DNA of 64,000 nt from Alphaproteobacteria bacterium (GTDB taxonomy: Bacteria; Pseudomonadota; Alphaproteobacteria; UBA9219; RGZA01). The stretch is taken from contig JAKFVN010000017.1 of assembly GCA_021732145.1 (NCBI GenBank), positions 91,661 through 155,660 on the forward strand, given 5' to 3'. Shown one piece after another: positions 7,826 through 36,242 of this stretch (within the stretch, counting starts at the first letter, position 1; every line of letters begins with the position of its first letter). The notes beneath the pieces were generated by a model that saw only the letters and a program-made list of their open reading frames with translations, did not search any database and was not told the DNA's origin. Made by a program: the position numbers and the translations under genes.

Positions 7826-8631
7826 TTCAGGAGTGCGAGTGCTTGCTTATGCAAGGTTTGATTGCCGGTTGCCAGAACGCAGCCATGCTGTGTTTCTACG
7901 CTGTCAAAATCCAATGTGCCGCCGCGCCAATCGGTCACCACACCGCCTGCACCTTCAATCACGGGAACCAGCGCCGCGTAATCATATAATTTCAGGCTGG
8001 TATCAATCTGGATATCGATGAACCCGCTGGCAACCAGCCCAAACGCATAGGCATCCCCCCCCCACAGGGAGTATTTGGCCGCATCTTCCAGAGGTTTGAA
8101 TTTTTTGCCAAAGGCTTCGTTCTTGCCAGAGAACATGCCGGGCGCGGTTGCGTTTAATACGGCCTTTGAAACATCGGTGCAGTTGCGCGTGGTCACGCGT
8201 TCGCCATTAAACGTGGTCGGGTGGCCATTGCCGCCAATCCAGCGCTCTTTTAAAACGGGCTGGTCAATCACGCCCATGACAAATTTCTTGTTATGGGTCA
8301 GGGCGATCAGCGTTGCAAAAACCGGCATGCCGCGGATGAACGCTTTGGTGCCGTCAATCGGGTCAATGACCCAGCTCCATTCGGCATCCATATTGCTGCT
8401 GCCGAATTCTTCGCCAAAAATGCCATCATCAGGGCGTTCGGCTTTCAACATTTTACGAATGGCTTCTTCTGCGCCTTTATCGGCAACGGTCACGGGCGTT
8501 TCATCTTCCTTGTTTTCAAAACCAACCTTGCGGAAATAGGGGCGAATGACATCGCCGCTGGCATCGGCCAGTTTGTGAAGGAGGGGAATGAAATCGACAG
8601 GGTTTTTTTGCATAGGTGAATTTATCATCAT
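7822..8631 (-). CDS. Inositol monophosphatase family protein (SuhB/HisN-like)
   Basis: Motifs WVIDPIDGTKAFIRG and ...ALVPVIEGAGG typical of the IMPase fold. Contains a G9 homopolymer at 8055-8063. Confidence 0.8.
   Translation of the reverse strand: MMINSPMQKNPVDFIPLLHKLADASGDVIRPYFRKVGFENKEDETPVTVADKGAEEAIRKMLKAERPDDGIFGEEFGSSNMDAEWSWVIDPIDGTKAFIRGMPVFATLIALTHNKKFVMGVIDQPVLKERWIGGNGHPTTFNGERVTTRNCTDVSKAVLNATAPGMFSGKNEAFGKKFKPLEDAAKYSLWGGDAYAFGLVASGFIDIQIDTSLKLYDYAALVPVIEGAGGVVTDWRGGTLDFDSVETQHGCVLATGNQTLHKQALALLK
8055..8063. repeat. C9/G9 homopolymeric tract inside the IMPase-family CDS
   Basis: Nine consecutive C on the + strand, encoding W-G-G on the coding (-) strand. Confidence 0.9.
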
Positions 8632-8703
8632 TGTTGAGCGGTTGTCTTATGTTTATTATAAAAATCTTGTTTCGAGTAGCGTTAAGTTGCAAGATTAATA
8701 TGC

Positions 8704-9720
8704 ATGACAACCCAGCATTTTCCTTTTTATCAATCCATCAAATCCTTAAGCCAGTTTCAGCAAACGCCATTTGTGTTGCTGGATGTGGGATGTCATGGCG
8801 GGTTGCATCCATTAGGCCGGCATTTTGCAGGCAACCTTGTGGGGGTTGGCTTTGATTTGGAAAAGGATGAAATTGCGCGGCTAAATGCCGCAGCGGATAA
8901 ACCGCGCGGCGCAGGATTTTTTCATATCAAACTGGTTGGCCCGAAGCACGCGGTTGAGCCAGCCGATGCGCCAAGCAGCGATATCATAGAGCGCAGCTCA
9001 GGTTACAAGGCCTGCACCATGCTGGGCGTTTATTCAGCGCAGCACATTAAGCAATCAACGGTCGCTGAAATAACCATGCTACAGGAAATGACACTCGATG
9101 AATTTACAAAACAAAAGAACCTGACCCATGTCGATTTCATCAAAACCGATACGGATGGATTTGATTTCCCGATTTTAAAAGGCGCAGAAGATTTGCTTTC
9201 TAAAACCGTATTGGGCTTGCAGGTGGAATGCGCCATTAACGGTTCGCAAAGCGACCAGTCCAACCTATGGCGCAATACCGATAAATTAATGCAGATGAAC
9301 GGGTTCTCGCTATTCGATATGCGCGTGTTCCGCTACAGCCGCGCGGTGATGCCGCGCGCCTTTGAAGGGCATGATCCCGCGCAAACCGAAAAAGGCCAAA
9401 TCAGCTGGTGCGATGCATTTTATTTCCGTGATTTGGGTGCGCCGGATTATGAAACCCGCACAGGTTTTGTTCCAACGGTTGAGCAAATGTTAAAGCAGGC
9501 GGCCCTGTTTGAATATTTCGGTTTTCCGGATTGCGCAGCGGAAGTGTTGATTAAATACAAAACCAGGCTTGCCGCGTTTATGGATGTGGATGCAGCGCTG
9601 AATGCGCTCACGCCCCAGGATATGGGCAATTTAAACTACAAAGAATATATGGGTGTTTTCGACCGCATGGTGAATACAAAGCAGATTTACCCGTTTGGCA
9701 GAATTAAGCTCCAAAAATAA
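8704..9720 (+). CDS. FkbM-family SAM-dependent methyltransferase-like protein (paralogue 1)
   Basis: FVLLDVGCHGG glycine-rich SAM loop, downstream acidic motif IKTDTDGFDFPIL. Same architecture as the ORF at 60848-61693. Confidence 0.5.
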   Translation: MTTQHFPFYQSIKSLSQFQQTPFVLLDVGCHGGLHPLGRHFAGNLVGVGFDLEKDEIARLNAAADKPRGAGFFHIKLVGPKHAVEPADAPSSDIIERSSGYKACTMLGVYSAQHIKQSTVAEITMLQEMTLDEFTKQKNLTHVDFIKTDTDGFDFPILKGAEDLLSKTVLGLQVECAINGSQSDQSNLWRNTDKLMQMNGFSLFDMRVFRYSRAVMPRAFEGHDPAQTEKGQISWCDAFYFRDLGAPDYETRTGFVPTVEQMLKQAALFEYFGFPDCAAEVLIKYKTRLAAFMDVDAALNALTPQDMGNLNYKEYMGVFDRMVNTKQIYPFGRIKLQK

Positions 9721-9745: not shown

Positions 9746-9773
9746 CTTGAAATCTGTCTTACCGAAATTATAT
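9746..9773 (+). promoter_or_regulatory. Putative RpoH (sigma32)-type heat-shock promoter upstream of hsp20
   Basis: CTTGAAA at 9746-9752, 17-nt spacer, then ATTATAT. This is close to the alphaproteobacterial RpoH consensus CTTG-N17-CYTATNT and would give a roughly 100-nt 5' UTR. Confidence 0.3.
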
Positions 9774-9783
9774 TTAATGGTGA

Positions 9784-9809
9784 TGCTGCAATGCCCATGA
9801 TGGGGTTGC
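9784..9809. promoter_or_regulatory. Imperfect inverted repeat CTGCAAtgCCCATgATGGGgTTGCAG in the hsp20 leader (operator or RNA structure)
   Basis: The 6-bp outer arms and 5-bp inner arms are exact reverse complements. Located just downstream of the putative -10. Confidence 0.35.
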
Positions 9810-9878
9810 AGCACGAACTAACATAGAGGCCGGCCATTCCCGGTGGCTTCAACCGCATATCGCTTTCAGGAGGATATT

Positions 9879-10346
9879 ATGCGCACCTACGACTTAACGC
9901 CCTTATTCCGTTCAACCATTGGCTTTGACAATCTCTCGCGTCTTATCGACAGCGCGATGAAGGTGGATGAAGCCGTTCCCGCTTACCCGCCCTATAACAT
10001 TGAAAAACTCAATGACGATGCCTATCGCATCACGATGGCTGTTGCGGGCTTTAACGAAAACGAGCTTAACCTTGTAACGCAGGACAATGTTCTTCTGGTT
10101 ACAGGCAAACAAACCAGTGATGACGCGGGTGAAGCCAAAGTATATCTCCATCGTGGTATCGCTGCCCGCAGTTTCGAGCGCCGCTTCCAGCTTGCTGACC
10201 ATGTAAAGGTCACTAGCGCAAGTTTGAGGGACGGCCTGCTTCACGTTGAACTAAAACGTGAAGTGCCGGAAGCCAAAAAGCCTCGCGCCATTAAAATTGA
10301 AAGTGGCGATGGTGGCGGTAAAGTTATCGACCAAACCGCTAATTAA
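9879..10346 (+). CDS. Small heat-shock protein, Hsp20/alpha-crystallin family
   Basis: MRTYDLTPLFRSTIGFD... IbpA-like N-terminus and alpha-crystallin domain. AGGAGG RBS 5 nt upstream of the ATG. Confidence 0.85.
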   Translation: MRTYDLTPLFRSTIGFDNLSRLIDSAMKVDEAVPAYPPYNIEKLNDDAYRITMAVAGFNENELNLVTQDNVLLVTGKQTSDDAGEAKVYLHRGIAARSFERRFQLADHVKVTSASLRDGLLHVELKREVPEAKKPRAIKIESGDGGGKVIDQTAN

Positions 10347-10364
10347 AACACGTGCAATAAAAAA

Positions 10365-10393
10365 ACCCCCGGTTCATCGCCGGGGGTTTCTTG
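10365..10393 (+). terminator. Rho-independent terminator after hsp20
   Basis: AAAAAA-CCCCCGG-ttcatcg-CCGGGGG-TTTCTTG: 7-bp GC stem followed by a T-rich tail. Confidence 0.65.
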
Positions 10394-10847
10394 TGCACGG
10401 CGTCCCGCGCGCGAATGGCTTTAAGTCCTGATATCTACCTTGCCACCACGGTCTGGTGTCACAGGTGAACTCGTGTCGATAATTGGCGGTTTTGGCGGCG
10501 GCGCAGCTTGCGGCGGCGGCAAAACGGTTTTAGGTGGCGTGACAATCTTCGATGATGTTGCTGAAACGCTCACGGCAAATCCCCTTTAAAATAAATTTCA
10601 ATATGCCAGCACTATAGCACAGGCGTGCTTAGGGATTTTTTAAGAAATCATCAAATGTGACGTATTCACCATGTTGTTTTGCTGCTGGTTCAACCAAACC
10701 GCTAACGATGCGTAAAGATTGGCTAAACAGTTGATTAAGGCCCGATGCAAAGACGCTGCTTTTAACCACCTTTTTGATTTTATTAAACGTTTTTGGGCTA
10801 ATCTGTTGGCCTTCTTGTGTTTATTCCGTTTTTTCGAGTGGTCTTCC

Positions 10848-13499
10848 TTGTCGCTTTATCTTGGCATTGATCTTGGCACTTCCAACAGTGTCGTCACAGG
10901 ATTGCTGGATTCTAAAATCCGCATTTTCCGTCCGGCTGACGGCGGTGAAACGCTGCCTTCAATGATTTACATTGATAAGCGTGGCCACCGTTTATTTGGC
11001 CGTCGCGCGCATGACCAGGCATTTATCGCGCCGGAAAATGTTGCGGCTGGTTTTAAGCGCCTGATGGGTACCAACACCAAGATTGAAGTTCCCGGCGCAG
11101 AGGTTTCGCTCACGCCTGAAGAATGCAGCGCGGAAATCATCAAGCAATTGATTGGCCAGGTATTCACCGAAATCGGCCAGCAGGAAATTGATGGCGTTGT
11201 CATCACCATTCCTGCCGCCTTCAACCAGATGCAGTCAGAAGCGACATTGCGCGCTGCCGAAATGGCAGGTATTAAACGCGTAGCGCTATTGCAGGAACCC
11301 GTTGCGGCTGCGATGGCTGCAATGGCCGGTACGCCGCGTGAAGGGCATTTTCTGGTTTATGATTTGGGCGGCGGCACGTTTGATTTGGCGCTCGCGCATA
11401 GCAAAGACGGCGAAGTAAAAATCGTATCGCATCAGGGCATCAACATGCTGGGCGGCCGCGATTTTGACCGCATGATTGTGCATGAAGTGGTACGCCCTTG
11501 GCTCAAGGAAACCTATAATCTTCCCGAGGATTTTTTCCGCAACAAGGAATACTCCCGTTTAATGCGCATTGCATCGCTGGCGGCTGAACGCGCCAAGATT
11601 GATTTAAGCCTGGTTGAGGAAACGCAAGTATTTGCCAGCGAAGAAGAAGTGCGCATGAAAGATTTGGCAGGCACTGATATTTTTATCGATGCAACACTGA
11701 CTCGCACGGTATTCGAAGGGCTGATTAAAACACCCGTGAACAACACCATCGATTTAATCCGCAGTGTTCTGGAAGAAGCCGAGCTTAAAACCGAAGATTT
11801 GGATTCGATTGTGTTTATCGGCGGCCCATCGCGCATTCCGCTCATTAAGGAAATGGTAAGCGAAGCATTGAAAGTGCCGGTGGATTTGAAGATTGACCCG
11901 ATGACCGCCGTGGCGATTGGCGCGGCATATCACGCCGAAAGCTTAACATGGGAAAGTGTTGCATCTGTCGCACCTGCAAAAGACAGTGAAGCAAAACCAG
12001 CCGAAGAAAAATTGCAAGCGAAGCCAAAACCCAAAGAAGCGCGGGTGGAAGTTGATAAAAAGCAAACCGGCCTTGATTTGGCATTTGATTATTCGGCGCG
12101 TACCGGCGCGGATAAAGCCAGTGTGCGCGTGGTGCTGCGCGCTAAGCCAGCCAAGGCGCGCTGGATGCGCGCATTCCGAAATGATGACAACGAAGAATGG
12201 CAATCGCCGCTTTATAAATTGGAAGATGGCTTAACGCTTACACTGCCATTGCCGCATATCGGCAAAAATGATTTTACGATTTCAGTGTTCGATGAACAGC
12301 GCGACCCGCTGCCGCATGGCGACCGCAAGATTACCGTAACGCGCACGGCTGCATCGGCCGCGCAAATTCCTGCCGCGCAAACCATTGCAGTGAAGTTGAT
12401 TGACCGCAAGGCTGGCGAGAATGTTCTCGACCCGCTTATTACCAAGGGCACGCAATTGCCCGCCGAAGGCAAGGCCATTTTCCGCGCCGCGCGCGATTTG
12501 AAATCTGGCTCGCAAAACGCTTTGGCGCTTGAACTATTCCAGTTGGAATATCCGGAAAAGGTTGAATTGAACCTTTGCATCGGCACTTTCTTTATTACCG
12601 GCAATGATTTGCCGGAAGGCTATATCATCCGCAAAGGTGAGCCTGTGACCTTTAACTGGCAAATGGATGAAAGCGGCATTTTGCGCTCCACCGTGCGCTT
12701 GCCTGCGCATAAAGACGATGGCAAAGAACATGAAGAAGGCGAGGCATTCGATGATGAAGAAGACCCCATCGAGCTTATCACGCCGCGTTTCTATTCGCCG
12801 CAATCGGCCGCGATTGCCTATGATGCAAAACACGGAACACCTTTTTCCAAGGCAATGTTGAAGCAGGCCGAAGAAGATTGGGGCGATTTGGCCGCGGCGA
12901 TTGGCCCGGCTGCAGGCGCGGATATTCAATTATTGAAAGATAGAATTGATGATCAAAAAGAAATCCTCAAAGATAGCCTTGATGATAGCGAAGTTATTCG
13001 CCAGGTATCTGAAGAAGCGCGTTTTTTAAGGCAGGATATCGCCCGCACCAGCCGCAAGCATCTTATTCCGTTATTGCAGCGCCGCTTGGGCCGCTTGCAG
13101 GCCATCTTTAACCGTGTGGCGCGTGCGTTTGCGAATGCCGAAGAACTGGAACGCTTTGAAAAGACAATTGCCGATATTAACGGCGTGCTGGATGAAAAGC
13201 GCGAAGCGGAATTGAATTACGCCGAACGCCGCCTTGAAGATTTAACCGATGATTTCTTTGATTTGTCATGGCGCGACCGCAATTTTGTGCGCTTATGGTT
13301 CAATCGCCTGAAGACCGAAAGCTATCTGTTCCCCGATTTGGAAGAGTTTCAATCGATGGTTGATGCCGGCGCGGTGCATGACCGCGAAAATGATGACGAA
13401 GCCTTGCGTGACCTTGTAAAGCGCATGTTTGATATTCGCGTGCGCCTTTCGGCCAGCGATACGGTTAGCGAACCTGCCACATTAATGCGCGGCGAATAA
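10848..13499 (+). CDS. Atypical Hsp70-family ATPase (about 880 aa) with divergent extended C-terminus
   Basis: Canonical NBD motifs: GIDLGTSNS, DLGGGTFD, IGGPSRIPL and GAAYHA. A divergent SBD-beta-like segment follows (LITKGTQLP ... GILRSTVRLP). Then an acidic stretch and about 300 aa of predicted helix. Start assigned to the in-frame TTG at 10848 (MSLYLGIDLG). The track ORF begins at ATG 10719 and would add an implausible 43-aa leader. Confidence 0.75.
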   Translation: MSLYLGIDLGTSNSVVTGLLDSKIRIFRPADGGETLPSMIYIDKRGHRLFGRRAHDQAFIAPENVAAGFKRLMGTNTKIEVPGAEVSLTPEECSAEIIKQLIGQVFTEIGQQEIDGVVITIPAAFNQMQSEATLRAAEMAGIKRVALLQEPVAAAMAAMAGTPREGHFLVYDLGGGTFDLALAHSKDGEVKIVSHQGINMLGGRDFDRMIVHEVVRPWLKETYNLPEDFFRNKEYSRLMRIASLAAERAKIDLSLVEETQVFASEEEVRMKDLAGTDIFIDATLTRTVFEGLIKTPVNNTIDLIRSVLEEAELKTEDLDSIVFIGGPSRIPLIKEMVSEALKVPVDLKIDPMTAVAIGAAYHAESLTWESVASVAPAKDSEAKPAEEKLQAKPKPKEARVEVDKKQTGLDLAFDYSARTGADKASVRVVLRAKPAKARWMRAFRNDDNEEWQSPLYKLEDGLTLTLPLPHIGKNDFTISVFDEQRDPLPHGDRKITVTRTAASAAQIPAAQTIAVKLIDRKAGENVLDPLITKGTQLPAEGKAIFRAARDLKSGSQNALALELFQLEYPEKVELNLCIGTFFITGNDLPEGYIIRKGEPVTFNWQMDESGILRSTVRLPAHKDDGKEHEEGEAFDDEEDPIELITPRFYSPQSAAIAYDAKHGTPFSKAMLKQAEEDWGDLAAAIGPAAGADIQLLKDRIDDQKEILKDSLDDSEVIRQVSEEARFLRQDIARTSRKHLIPLLQRRLGRLQAIFNRVARAFANAEELERFEKTIADINGVLDEKREAELNYAERRLEDLTDDFFDLSWRDRNFVRLWFNRLKTESYLFPDLEEFQSMVDAGAVHDRENDDEALRDLVKRMFDIRVRLSASDTVSEPATLMRGE

Positions 13500-35006: not shown

Positions 35007-36242
35007 ATGGCCAATACCCTTGATAAAAAACATCTAACCCCTATTTCGCAGGCTGAACTTGATGTCGCAATCAAGAAGCACGCCATGTATGCAAATGCGA
35101 AAGTGGGCGGGGCGCGTGCAATCCTTAGCTATAAGGATTTATCGGGATTGGTATTGCGCGCGGTTGATTTATCCAGCGCGGATTTCAGCGGCTCCATGTT
35201 CTATGATGCCGATATGCGCAATTGCAAAATGGAAGGCAGTGTTTTCTTTTGCGCCAATTTACAAAAAGCACATTTGAATGATGCGCGCCTTGCGCGCATT
35301 GATTTGCGCGGCGCAAATATTCAAGGCGTCGATTTTTCCGGCGCGGATCTAACGCAGGCCGATATGCGCGAAGGTTCGATGGCCACCAAAGACCGCCGTG
35401 GCAATATCAGCGTGAAGCCGCTTGCAGGCGCAGCGCCAATGAAGGCCGATGGCAAGAAAACCGATGTTCCTGTGTACACGGATGATGTGGATGCGCGCGA
35501 AGCCCTGTTCATTGGCACGCGTATGCACCGCGCCATGCTGCGCGGCGCACGTATGCAGGGCGCGATTTTGGAAAATGCCGATTTAACCGGCGCGCAGATG
35601 GATGGCGCAAGCCTTCGTGAAGCCGTGCTGCTCAACACCACATTAGACGGTATTGAATTATCTCAGATTGATTTTGCCCATGCGCTGCGCGATGAAATTC
35701 AAGGGTTGGGTATTGAAGATACGTTTGAGCCCTTGCCGCAATTGTTCACGAAACATGCGGTCTGGGTTGAAAGCGGCGGGGTAATTGGTACGCGCCTTGA
35801 TTTAACGCGTTATGATTTGCGCGCGCATAAAAGCCAGTATATCGATTTCAAAGAACAGAATTTAATCATGATGAAAGCGCGTCAGGCGATTTTCTATCAT
35901 GTACGCTTCAGCAGCGCGCAAATTCAGGCATGCGATTTCCGCAATTGCGATTTCCGCCTTGCCCTGTTTGATAAGGCCGATTTGCGCGGCAGCGATTTTT
36001 CAGGTTCCAACATGATGCGCGCGCGCTTCCAGCTTGCGCTGCTTTATCCACTGAAACTTCCTGATGGCCGTATTGTTCCAACCAACATGAGCAATTGTAA
36101 TCTGCGCTATGCCGATTTTACCGGCGCGGATTTAAAGAGCGTGAATTTCACCGGCGCAGACCTTTCCTATGCCGATATGCGCGGCACGAATCTGGCGGGC
36201 GCGGATATCACTGGCGCAATCACTGAAAACACGCTGTTTTAA
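35007..36242 (+). CDS. Pentapeptide-repeat protein
   Basis: Long runs of A(D/N)L(S/T)x-type pentapeptides (ADLTGAQM, ANLAGADITGA, and so on). Confidence 0.75.
   Translation: MANTLDKKHLTPISQAELDVAIKKHAMYANAKVGGARAILSYKDLSGLVLRAVDLSSADFSGSMFYDADMRNCKMEGSVFFCANLQKAHLNDARLARIDLRGANIQGVDFSGADLTQADMREGSMATKDRRGNISVKPLAGAAPMKADGKKTDVPVYTDDVDAREALFIGTRMHRAMLRGARMQGAILENADLTGAQMDGASLREAVLLNTTLDGIELSQIDFAHALRDEIQGLGIEDTFEPLPQLFTKHAVWVESGGVIGTRLDLTRYDLRAHKSQYIDFKEQNLIMMKARQAIFYHVRFSSAQIQACDFRNCDFRLALFDKADLRGSDFSGSNMMRARFQLALLYPLKLPDGRIVPTNMSNCNLRYADFTGADLKSVNFTGADLSYADMRGTNLAGADITGAITENTLF

Follow-up and report, generated by a model that had tools for sequence, protein, structure and literature searches.

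The 64-kb stretch of alphaproteobacterial DNA analysed here (hereafter the window) carries two adjacent chaperone genes on its forward strand, namely hsp20, which encodes a small heat-shock protein (sHsp), and a longer gene whose product begins with the nucleotide-binding domain (NBD) of an Hsp70. Both were located from a listing of the open reading frames (ORFs) and by direct reading of the sequence, and an original prediction had taken them together as a self-contained stress module. A scan of one genome per species yielded 42 loci with a homologue of the Hsp70-like gene, designated below by L-numbers; the 43-sequence alignment to which we refer throughout comprises the window protein and 42 homologues. 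The product of the long gene, 883 amino acids (aa) in length, is a true Hsp70 derivative and is neither DnaK, HscA nor YegD. Its most likely function, which we regard as probable, is that of a stand-alone, vertically inherited and specialised ATP-driven Hsp70 chaperone. The features of the locus are collected in Table 1.

Table 1. Features of the hsp20/Hsp70-like locus (positions are those of the window; SD, Shine-Dalgarno sequence; SBD, substrate-binding domain; pLDDT, predicted local distance difference test score).
Feature	Position	Strand	Basis
sigma32 (RpoH)-type promoter of hsp20, CTTGAAA-14 nt-ATTATAT	9746..9773	+	motif match; conserved spacing in orthologous leaders
hsp20 5' leader, ~97 nt, three predicted hairpins, ROSE-like	9781..9878	+	folding; sub-threshold Rfam matches
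First leader hairpin (inverted repeat seen earlier), loop CCCAUGAUGGG	9784..9813	+	folding; aligns to first hairpin of ROSE_2
Predicted SD/AUG-masking hairpin, CGC-AUAUC-G-CUU-loop-GAG-GAUAU-UAU-GCG	9854..9883	+	alignment to ROSE consensus
hsp20, IbpA-like small heat-shock protein, 155 aa	9879..10346	+	Pfam HSP20, 5.5e-20
Intrinsic terminator, 7-bp GC stem, A-run before, T-run after	10367..10396		folding; conserved in L007 and L001
Small Pro-rich ORF, 50 aa (VSVSATSSKIVTPPKTVLPPPQAAPPPKPPIIDTSSPVTPDRGGKVDIRT), convergent with hsp20	10421..10573	-	tblastn conservation
Conserved non-coding region 5' of the Hsp70-like gene, presumed own promoter and leader	10625..10847	+	invariant blocks across genomes
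NBD, aa 1-367	10848..11948	+	Pfam HSP70; DnaK NBD structures match at 1e-68
Variable K/A/E-rich low-complexity linker, 37 aa, aa 368-404	11949..12059	+	low pLDDT at 375-384; composition
Extra beta-sandwich, FN3/Ig-like, ~96 aa, aa 405-500	12060..12347	+	pLDDT 85-91; FN3 and factor XIII barrel among secondary Foldseek matches
SBD-beta-like peptide-binding basket, aa 501-620	12348..12707	+	predicted fold; collinear alignment
Acidic disordered stretch, aa 621-660	12708..12827	+	pLDDT below 50 at 626-654
Helical C-terminal domain, nine helices at aa 663-863, with conserved tail and stop	12828..13499	+	AlphaFold2 model

The N-terminal part of the long protein leaves little doubt about its affinity. 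The original prediction had described a protein of about 880 aa with an Hsp70 NBD, and the Pfam HSP70 model (PF00012) indeed matches, covering aa 5-367 only (2.7e-67) and positions 2-376 of the 599 in the profile, with 227.8 bits where the cutoff is 20.6. Its start had been left undecided between a TTG at 10848 and a supposed ATG at 10719. The codon at 10719 is in fact a TTG, and since all 42 aligned homologues begin with M(SL)Y(L/I)GIDLGT and the extension upstream of 10848 is not conserved, the start is fixed at TTG 10848. The accompanying Shine-Dalgarno (SD) sequence is only a weak purine patch. Within the NBD the residues D8, K70, E150, D172, G174-T177 and D179 are invariant in the 43 sequences, and the alignment as a whole is conserved over its full length, with many invariant residues in the C-terminal half as well. 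An actin-like or MreB-like cytoskeletal identity was considered and rejected, the MreB model scoring 73 bits against 228 for HSP70.

The C-terminal half follows a different plan from that of the canonical chaperones. AlphaFold2, run on the 43-sequence alignment, gave a model with a mean pLDDT of 82.7 and a predicted template modelling (TM) score of 0.79, in which the NBD (1-364) is followed by a disordered linker, a first beta domain (~388-500), a second beta domain (503-618), the disordered acidic stretch, nine helices (663-863) and a short terminal strand. Profile-profile comparison and structure prediction of this half, the check proposed in the original prediction, thus divide it into a predicted SBD-beta, an additional predicted sandwich and a nine-helix domain. 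The Lys/Ala-rich insertion of about 130 aa described there proved to be composite: the K/A/E linker, whose length differs between homologues, is of low complexity, and the remainder is a conserved, folded beta-sandwich. That this extra beta domain could be a duplicate of the SBD-beta was rejected, as hhalign returned a probability of 1%. A homologue from a Rickettsiales metagenome-assembled genome (MAG) at L045 (771 aa, P0314; match 8001-9083) is devoid of the sandwich, which indicates that the domain is dispensable in at least one lineage.

The divergent SBD-beta-like segment that had been suggested gains support from the predicted fold and from collinear alignment. With hhalign, aa 524-618 align collinearly with the SBD-beta of E. 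coli DnaK (31% identity over 85 columns, E 0.002), and HMMER gave the same register, weakly. The acidic stretch is present as described, but in the 43-sequence alignment it is long solely in the window clade. The helical tail, put at about 300 aa before, amounts to about 205 aa; this domain has no specific match, and it ends in a conserved tail that reads ATLMRGE in the window protein and ELATIVKA in most homologues. Among known structures the model is closest to full-length DnaK and BiP (Foldseek E 1e-32), with a TM score of 0.80 to domain-docked BiP, and it docks the SBD-beta on the NBD in the manner of ATP-state DnaK/BiP.

These features both tie the protein to the known Hsp70s and set it apart from them. 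Like DnaK it has all the catalytic NBD residues, about 31% identity to E. coli DnaK in the NBD, a collinear SBD-beta and a predicted docked state. Unlike DnaK it bears a linker and an FN3-like sandwich between the NBD and the SBD, has the lid replaced by an unrelated helical domain, and reaches 883 aa against about 640. The scores against the DnaK models stay far below their cutoffs (238 bits against the TIGR02350 equivalog cutoff of 822.55; 237.7 against 648 for NF001413) and cover profile positions 2-375 only; HscA (TIGR01991) scores 214 bits against 708.55, in the NBD only, and the YegD-type model (NF008673) 59 against 331. The designation as a non-canonical Hsp70 paralogue, with no full-length match to any of these subfamily models, is therefore borne out. 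HscA, HscC and YegD resemble it in concept, being Hsp70 paralogues whose C-terminal part has diverged and whose range of clients is presumably narrow, but these E. coli proteins are shorter and have truncated lids or no SBD. No HscC model was among the NCBIfam matches, and the length of 883 aa together with the domain insertions speaks against a place of the window protein in HscC. Another parallel is CnuD of the type III CoCoNuT systems, which combines Hsp70-like NBD and SBD with HEAT-like repeats, has degenerate Walker A-like motifs and always occurs with McrBC homologues (PMC11090510). It resembles the window protein in outline, an Hsp70 NBD and SBD followed by helical repeats, and is an analogue in architecture only; its description sets it apart from the window protein, whose catalytic motifs are invariant and whose neighbours are hsp20 and manC.

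The architecture also brings to mind the eukaryotic Hsp110/Grp170 proteins. Bacterial DnaK derivatives are largely unexplored, and a 2026 review has suggested Hsp110-like co-chaperone roles for the uncharacterised ones, Hsp110 itself being restricted to eukaryotes (PMC13580251). By such an account, the window protein would not be a foldase in its own right; its NBD would contact that of DnaK, and it would promote nucleotide exchange or enhance disaggregation. Its length, the acidic disordered insertion near the SBD, the extended helices and the docked-state model all agree with this, and the Hsp110 protein Sse1 is among the structural matches. However, Sse1 matches far more weakly than DnaK (2.7e-24 against 1e-32; in another Foldseek comparison 6e-4 against 3e-6), the acidic stretch is confined to one clade, and the helical domain has no specific similarity to the Hsp110 lid. 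Moreover, the insertions lie at positions other than those of Hsp110/Grp170, so the likeness is best seen as convergent. We consider an Hsp110-like role improbable.

The family to which the protein belongs is small, fixed in architecture and uncharacterised, and is found mainly in uncultured Alphaproteobacteria; our literature search found no paper on an Hsp70-like family of about 840 aa. Database searches recovered many full-length homologues of 840-900 aa from uncultured Alphaproteobacteria, whose annotation goes no further than "Hsp70 family protein" or "molecular chaperone DnaK". When 1.84 billion proteins were searched with the C-terminal half alone, only 227 cluster representatives were retrieved; those of full length are all 823-860 aa long, and in each the C-terminal region begins near residue 385. 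A profile of the C-terminal alignment, searched against a word-indexed database, gave 18 matches and added little. The 42 loci of the genome scan all come from MAGs, labelled as Alphaproteobacteria, Rhodospirillales, Rickettsiales or Bdellovibrionales, the last of these probably a mislabelling. A neighbour-joining tree separates the alphaproteobacterial members into the window clade and a sister group that holds all the others. The closest locus, L007, stems from an uncultured Rhodospirillales MAG, and its orthologue is 95% identical in protein at a DNA identity of about 81%, which points to strong purifying selection on the Hsp70-like gene; the proteins encoded by neighbouring genes are 76-96% identical. 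The window copy lies among housekeeping genes (inositol monophosphatase, manC, coaBC, dut) that are syntenic across species. The original prediction had noted the lack of an adjacent dnaJ or grpE, which we also find: neither flanks the Hsp70-like gene, a crude motif scan detected no J-domain in the 64 kb, and there is no second Hsp70 gene in the window.

Upstream of this gene lies an hsp20 unit of a familiar kind. Among NCBIfam models its product comes nearest to IbpA, with 157 bits where an equivalog needs 212, and is thus IbpA-like and not an equivalog. The promoter had been described as RpoH-type with an N17 gap between CTTGAAA and ATTATAT. The motif is present and an RpoH type is probable, but the heptamers (9746-9752 and 9767-9773) are separated by 14 nt, and 17 is the distance counted from CTTG. 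In the 64 kb, this site alone fits the pattern CTTGAAA-N15-YTATNT exactly; with up to one mismatch there are 2 matches against 0.72 expected, which makes the pattern by itself weak evidence. Eight related hsp20 leaders have CTTG(A/C).. at an equal distance from a C(C/T)TATNT-like element, and the motif CTTG-N17-CYTATNT occurs in 9 of 9 hsp20 leaders. Several orthologous -10 elements retain the canonical CC (L010 CCTATTT, L004 CCCCTATTT, L047 CCCATCT), with CC(C)TA/CAT at the orthologous sites of L004, L010, L011 and L047. From these conserved orthologous promoters we infer that the window promoter is an AT-shifted version of a conserved RpoH-type promoter.

Two further observations concern this promoter and its surroundings. 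The second match of the pattern, CTTGATA-N15-CTATTT at 35019-35046 (+), differs from it at one position, has a C-rich run (CCCC) across the end of the spacer and the start of the -10 element, and coincides with the beginning of a pentapeptide-repeat ORF (35007-36242). Probably the match has arisen by chance, or else the start of that ORF is miscalled. An FkbM-type methyltransferase gene (8704-9720, +) is placed between the inositol monophosphatase gene and hsp20. At this position it is present in the window and in L007 only, being absent from L001 and L009, which indicates a recent insertion or deletion beside the hsp20 promoter.

Assuming that transcription starts about 7 nt past the -10 element, the hsp20 leader is about 97 nt long, and the earlier description of it as ROSE-like and of roughly 100 nt is upheld by its length and by the features of its final hairpin. 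The Rfam models ROSE (RF00435) and ROSE_2 (RF01832) align over their full lengths at 9776/9787-9885, with 18.8 bits against a cutoff of 45 and 18.5 against 65, respectively. The inverted repeat that had been noticed in the leader is real; its arms at 9784-9791 and 9806-9813 extend into a 13-bp hairpin, in which a U-A pair is replaced by C-G in L001 and L007. This hairpin is not, however, the candidate thermometer element, since the structure predicted to mask the SD is the last one of the leader. ROSE-type thermometers are recognised by an SD that faces UCGCU and a bulged G, and by a basal stem that takes in the AUG; in the alignment to the ROSE consensus the UCGCU anti-SD with its bulged G faces GGAGGA and the AUG lies within the basal stem. 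UCGCU or UUGCU is present in 9 of 9 hsp20 leaders, and the arrangement UAUCGCUY-loop-GGAGGAUA is kept in the eight that align cleanly, L038 having UAUUGCUC instead. Pairing in the inner helix reaches 98.4% over these eight leaders, with covariation of one pair between AU, CG and GC, and only 3 of 500 shuffles matched the score of the helix.

The leader therefore resembles the ROSE thermometers of rhizobial and enterobacterial sHsp genes (RF00435, RF01832) in lying in the 5' untranslated region of an IbpA-like sHsp gene with a sigma32-type promoter, and in having several hairpins, the last of which sets U(U/C)GCU and its bulged G against the SD and encloses the AUG in its basal stem. It differs in that the final hairpin is shorter, for want of the consensus CCAUG/UAUGG segment, and in its scores of 18-19 bits. 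In-silico folding weakens gradually, from -8.7 kcal/mol at 30 C to -5.9 at 42 C.

Downstream of hsp20 the predicted terminator was confirmed. Its stem (10367-10373 paired with 10381-10387) is followed by TTTCTTGTG, and its folding free energy of -29.4 kcal/mol (z -6.9) was equalled by none of 200 shuffles; the A-run before and the T-run after the stem suggest that it could work in both directions. A consensus scan for terminators passed over the 10367-10387 stem, probably because the flanking A/T runs lengthen the stem and consume its T tail, and the negatives of that scan need caution. The hsp20 unit as a whole, with its sigma32-type promoter, ROSE-like leader and terminator, is known alphaproteobacterial biology and holds nothing new.

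The spacer between the two genes (10347-10847) measures 501 nt and not about 450 as estimated before. It contains the Pro-rich ORF, which converges on the hsp20 terminator and was recovered by tblastn in L007 (70% identity over 50 aa), L009 and L001; its homologues share the end motif TPDRG(G/S)(K/R)(V/L)(D/N)I, and it is probably an unannotated small gene. Further downstream, in the last 220 nt or so before the Hsp70-like gene, four genomes that are about 81% identical overall share invariant blocks such as ATGCTTAGGGATTTTTTAAGAAA and TTTTAACCACCTTTTTGATTTTATTAAA..CAGGCTAATCTGTTGGCCTTCTT. In another clade (L005, L017, L044) a GGCTAWAT-like element lies just 5' of the ATG. Such blocks and elements, which correspond to no known motif that we could identify, may represent a shared promoter or operator. 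The CTTG-N17-CYTATNT motif, searched for as a single regular expression within 350 nt upstream of the Hsp70-like gene, was found at none of 37 loci. A CIRCE/HrcA operator 5' of the gene was also considered and rejected, as there are zero matches with up to 3 mismatches across the window, and a CIRCE-like AGCAC..GTGCT at about 10605-10630 was dismissed because relatives do not conserve it.

The terminator, the convergent ORF, the conserved upstream region of the Hsp70-like gene itself, the lack of the sigma32 motif at 37 loci and the lack of hsp20 at most related loci together indicate that the two genes form separate transcription units. Hence, of the proposed stress module the heat-shock unit of hsp20 is supported and joint transcription with the Hsp70-like gene is not. 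Linkage was assessed at 33 informative alphaproteobacterial loci and in 5 distant relatives. An hsp20 gene lies upstream of the Hsp70-like gene at 9 of the 33, in two separate clades, and in none of the 5; at the remaining 24 it is not nearby. Each of the 7 loci of the window clade has an upstream hsp20 in the same orientation, 282-2421 bp away, and there the flanking genes are syntenic too. The other occurrence is in the nested L038/L047 subclade, where DUF1800, DUF1501 and hsp20 lie between an epimerase gene and the Hsp70-like gene that are adjacent in related loci, and hsp20 appears to have been inserted between this ancestral neighbour and the Hsp70-like gene. The linkage on which the module had been staked thus recurs in two clades but is no property of the family, which speaks in part against the module. 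We conclude that the hsp20 neighbourhood is clade-level synteny and is not evidence of co-regulation.

Some of the loci without hsp20 have a neighbour of their own. In 11 of the 24, all in the second alphaproteobacterial clade (L005 at 8609-9283, L017, L019, L021, L024, L027, L042-L044, L046 and L048), a 224-aa ORF follows the Hsp70-like gene, on the same strand and 29-118 bp downstream in 10 of the 11 and 720 bp downstream in L042. It is 66-87% identical among loci, has no Pfam or NCBIfam match and is not present in the window.

Separate transcription leaves room for a functional partnership of the two products. The handover of sHsp-bound substrates to Hsp70 is established chaperone biology, and the two could form a bichaperone pair in which denatured proteins held by the sHsp are extracted or refolded by the long Hsp70 by means of its C-terminal domains. 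Such a pairing would account for the invariable presence of hsp20 upstream in the window clade and its return in the L038/L047 subclade. It is harder to reconcile with the absence of hsp20 from 24 of the 33 loci and from every distant relative, with the failure to find a heat-shock promoter before the Hsp70-like gene, and with the terminator and convergent ORF that part the genes; besides, the flanks of the window clade are syntenic as well, so that adjacency there requires no selection. We view the bichaperone pair as unlikely, albeit conceivable.

The distant relatives present the family in other surroundings. They come from Halomonas salipaludis (WP_095619487.1), an uncultured Dialister (WP_296956237.1) and metagenomes, and in 5 of 5 of their loci a homologous ORF of 113-123 aa directly precedes the Hsp70-like gene, which in 4 of 5 is followed by a classical AAA ATPase of 406-476 aa. 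The latter has matches to IetA, from the defence system IetAS (1e-24 to 1e-32), and also to CDC48-, FtsH- and PAN-type domains. The three genes occupy 6657-10925 in L049, 6630-10920 in L050, 5634-9928 in L052 and 5627-9929 in L053, and integrases, an IS110 transposase, a BrnT/CopG toxin-antitoxin pair and large helicases lie around these loci. PADLOC does not list this cassette as a system, and we regard it as a candidate new mobile chaperone/unfoldase system. The small ORF has no Pfam or NCBIfam match. By eye its end (Y-D/E-P..., ...EP.I...G...V.V) recalls the beta-domain of GrpE, an identity that neither phmmer nor a 4-sequence profile against PDB supported. As the gene's own companion, the ORF suggests a private accessory protein and hence a family that is not itself an accessory of DnaK, which further disfavours the Hsp110-like role.

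These loci raise the prospect that the window gene belongs to, or is what domestication has left of, a mobile system of conflict or defence that combines Hsp70 and AAA proteins, with a role in defence and not in proteostasis. The small ORF, the IetA-like partner and the mobile surroundings would all fit. Yet both partners are absent from the 64-kb window and from about 40 alphaproteobacterial loci, the window context is one of syntenic housekeeping genes, and very strong purifying selection with vertical inheritance is atypical of defence genes. PADLOC gave only a marginal match for the window (PDC-M61B, E 2e-4, 29 residues), and we rejected the protein as a component of a known defence system on that count. 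A defensive role of the window copy is, in our estimate, highly improbable. A broader scenario would make the ~840-aa family the core of an undescribed mobile three-gene conflict system, from which the window copy was domesticated, twice placed behind a ROSE-controlled sHsp gene, and now handles aggregates with the sHsp or, in an Hsp110-like manner, with DnaK; it is speculative, and we hold it to be distinctly unlikely.

In the interpretation we favour, a specialised Hsp70 chaperone acting on its own beside a conventional heat-shock gene, the two would be adjacent but independent transcription units. On heat shock the sigma32-type promoter would raise hsp20 transcription, the leader would keep the SD and AUG paired in the cool and melt as the temperature rises, and the terminator would end the transcript, hsp20 being in all likelihood a standard alphaproteobacterial class-A (IbpA-like) sHsp gene. 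The Hsp70-like gene would be expressed from its own promoter, probably at a low level in view of its conserved TTG start and weak SD. Its product would run an ATP-driven cycle of binding and release on polypeptide segments, as do DnaK, HscA and HscC, and the beta-sandwich and helical tail may supply client or partner specificity.

Several points weigh against this picture. The ATPase activity and peptide binding of the 883-aa protein are predicted from conserved residues and a modelled fold. The adjacency of hsp20 in two separate clades exceeds what is expected of a random pair of genes and could reflect functional coupling, and a divergent or more distant heat-shock promoter before the Hsp70-like gene would escape our regular expression. 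As to hsp20, its promoter site is also the best sigma70-like match of the region (TTGAAA-16-TATATT, 10/12), and its -10 element, ATTATAT, has the TATNT core but misses the canonical CC of sigma32, even though the -35 element and the spacing fit. No related leader passes the Rfam gathering thresholds for ROSE or ROSE_2, the window leader being likewise below them, and nearest-neighbour folding showed no sharp opening between 30 and 45 C.

The locus thus offers a clean Hsp70 derivative with a defined and confidently modelled architecture, intact catalytic residues and a simple chromosomal context, which makes it a tractable case for how extra domains alter the Hsp70 cycle. It would matter further in the light of its distant relatives, which are found in mobile elements alongside an AAA ATPase and a small partner of their own, and of the adjacency to a heat-controlled sHsp gene that recurs in two clades of the family.

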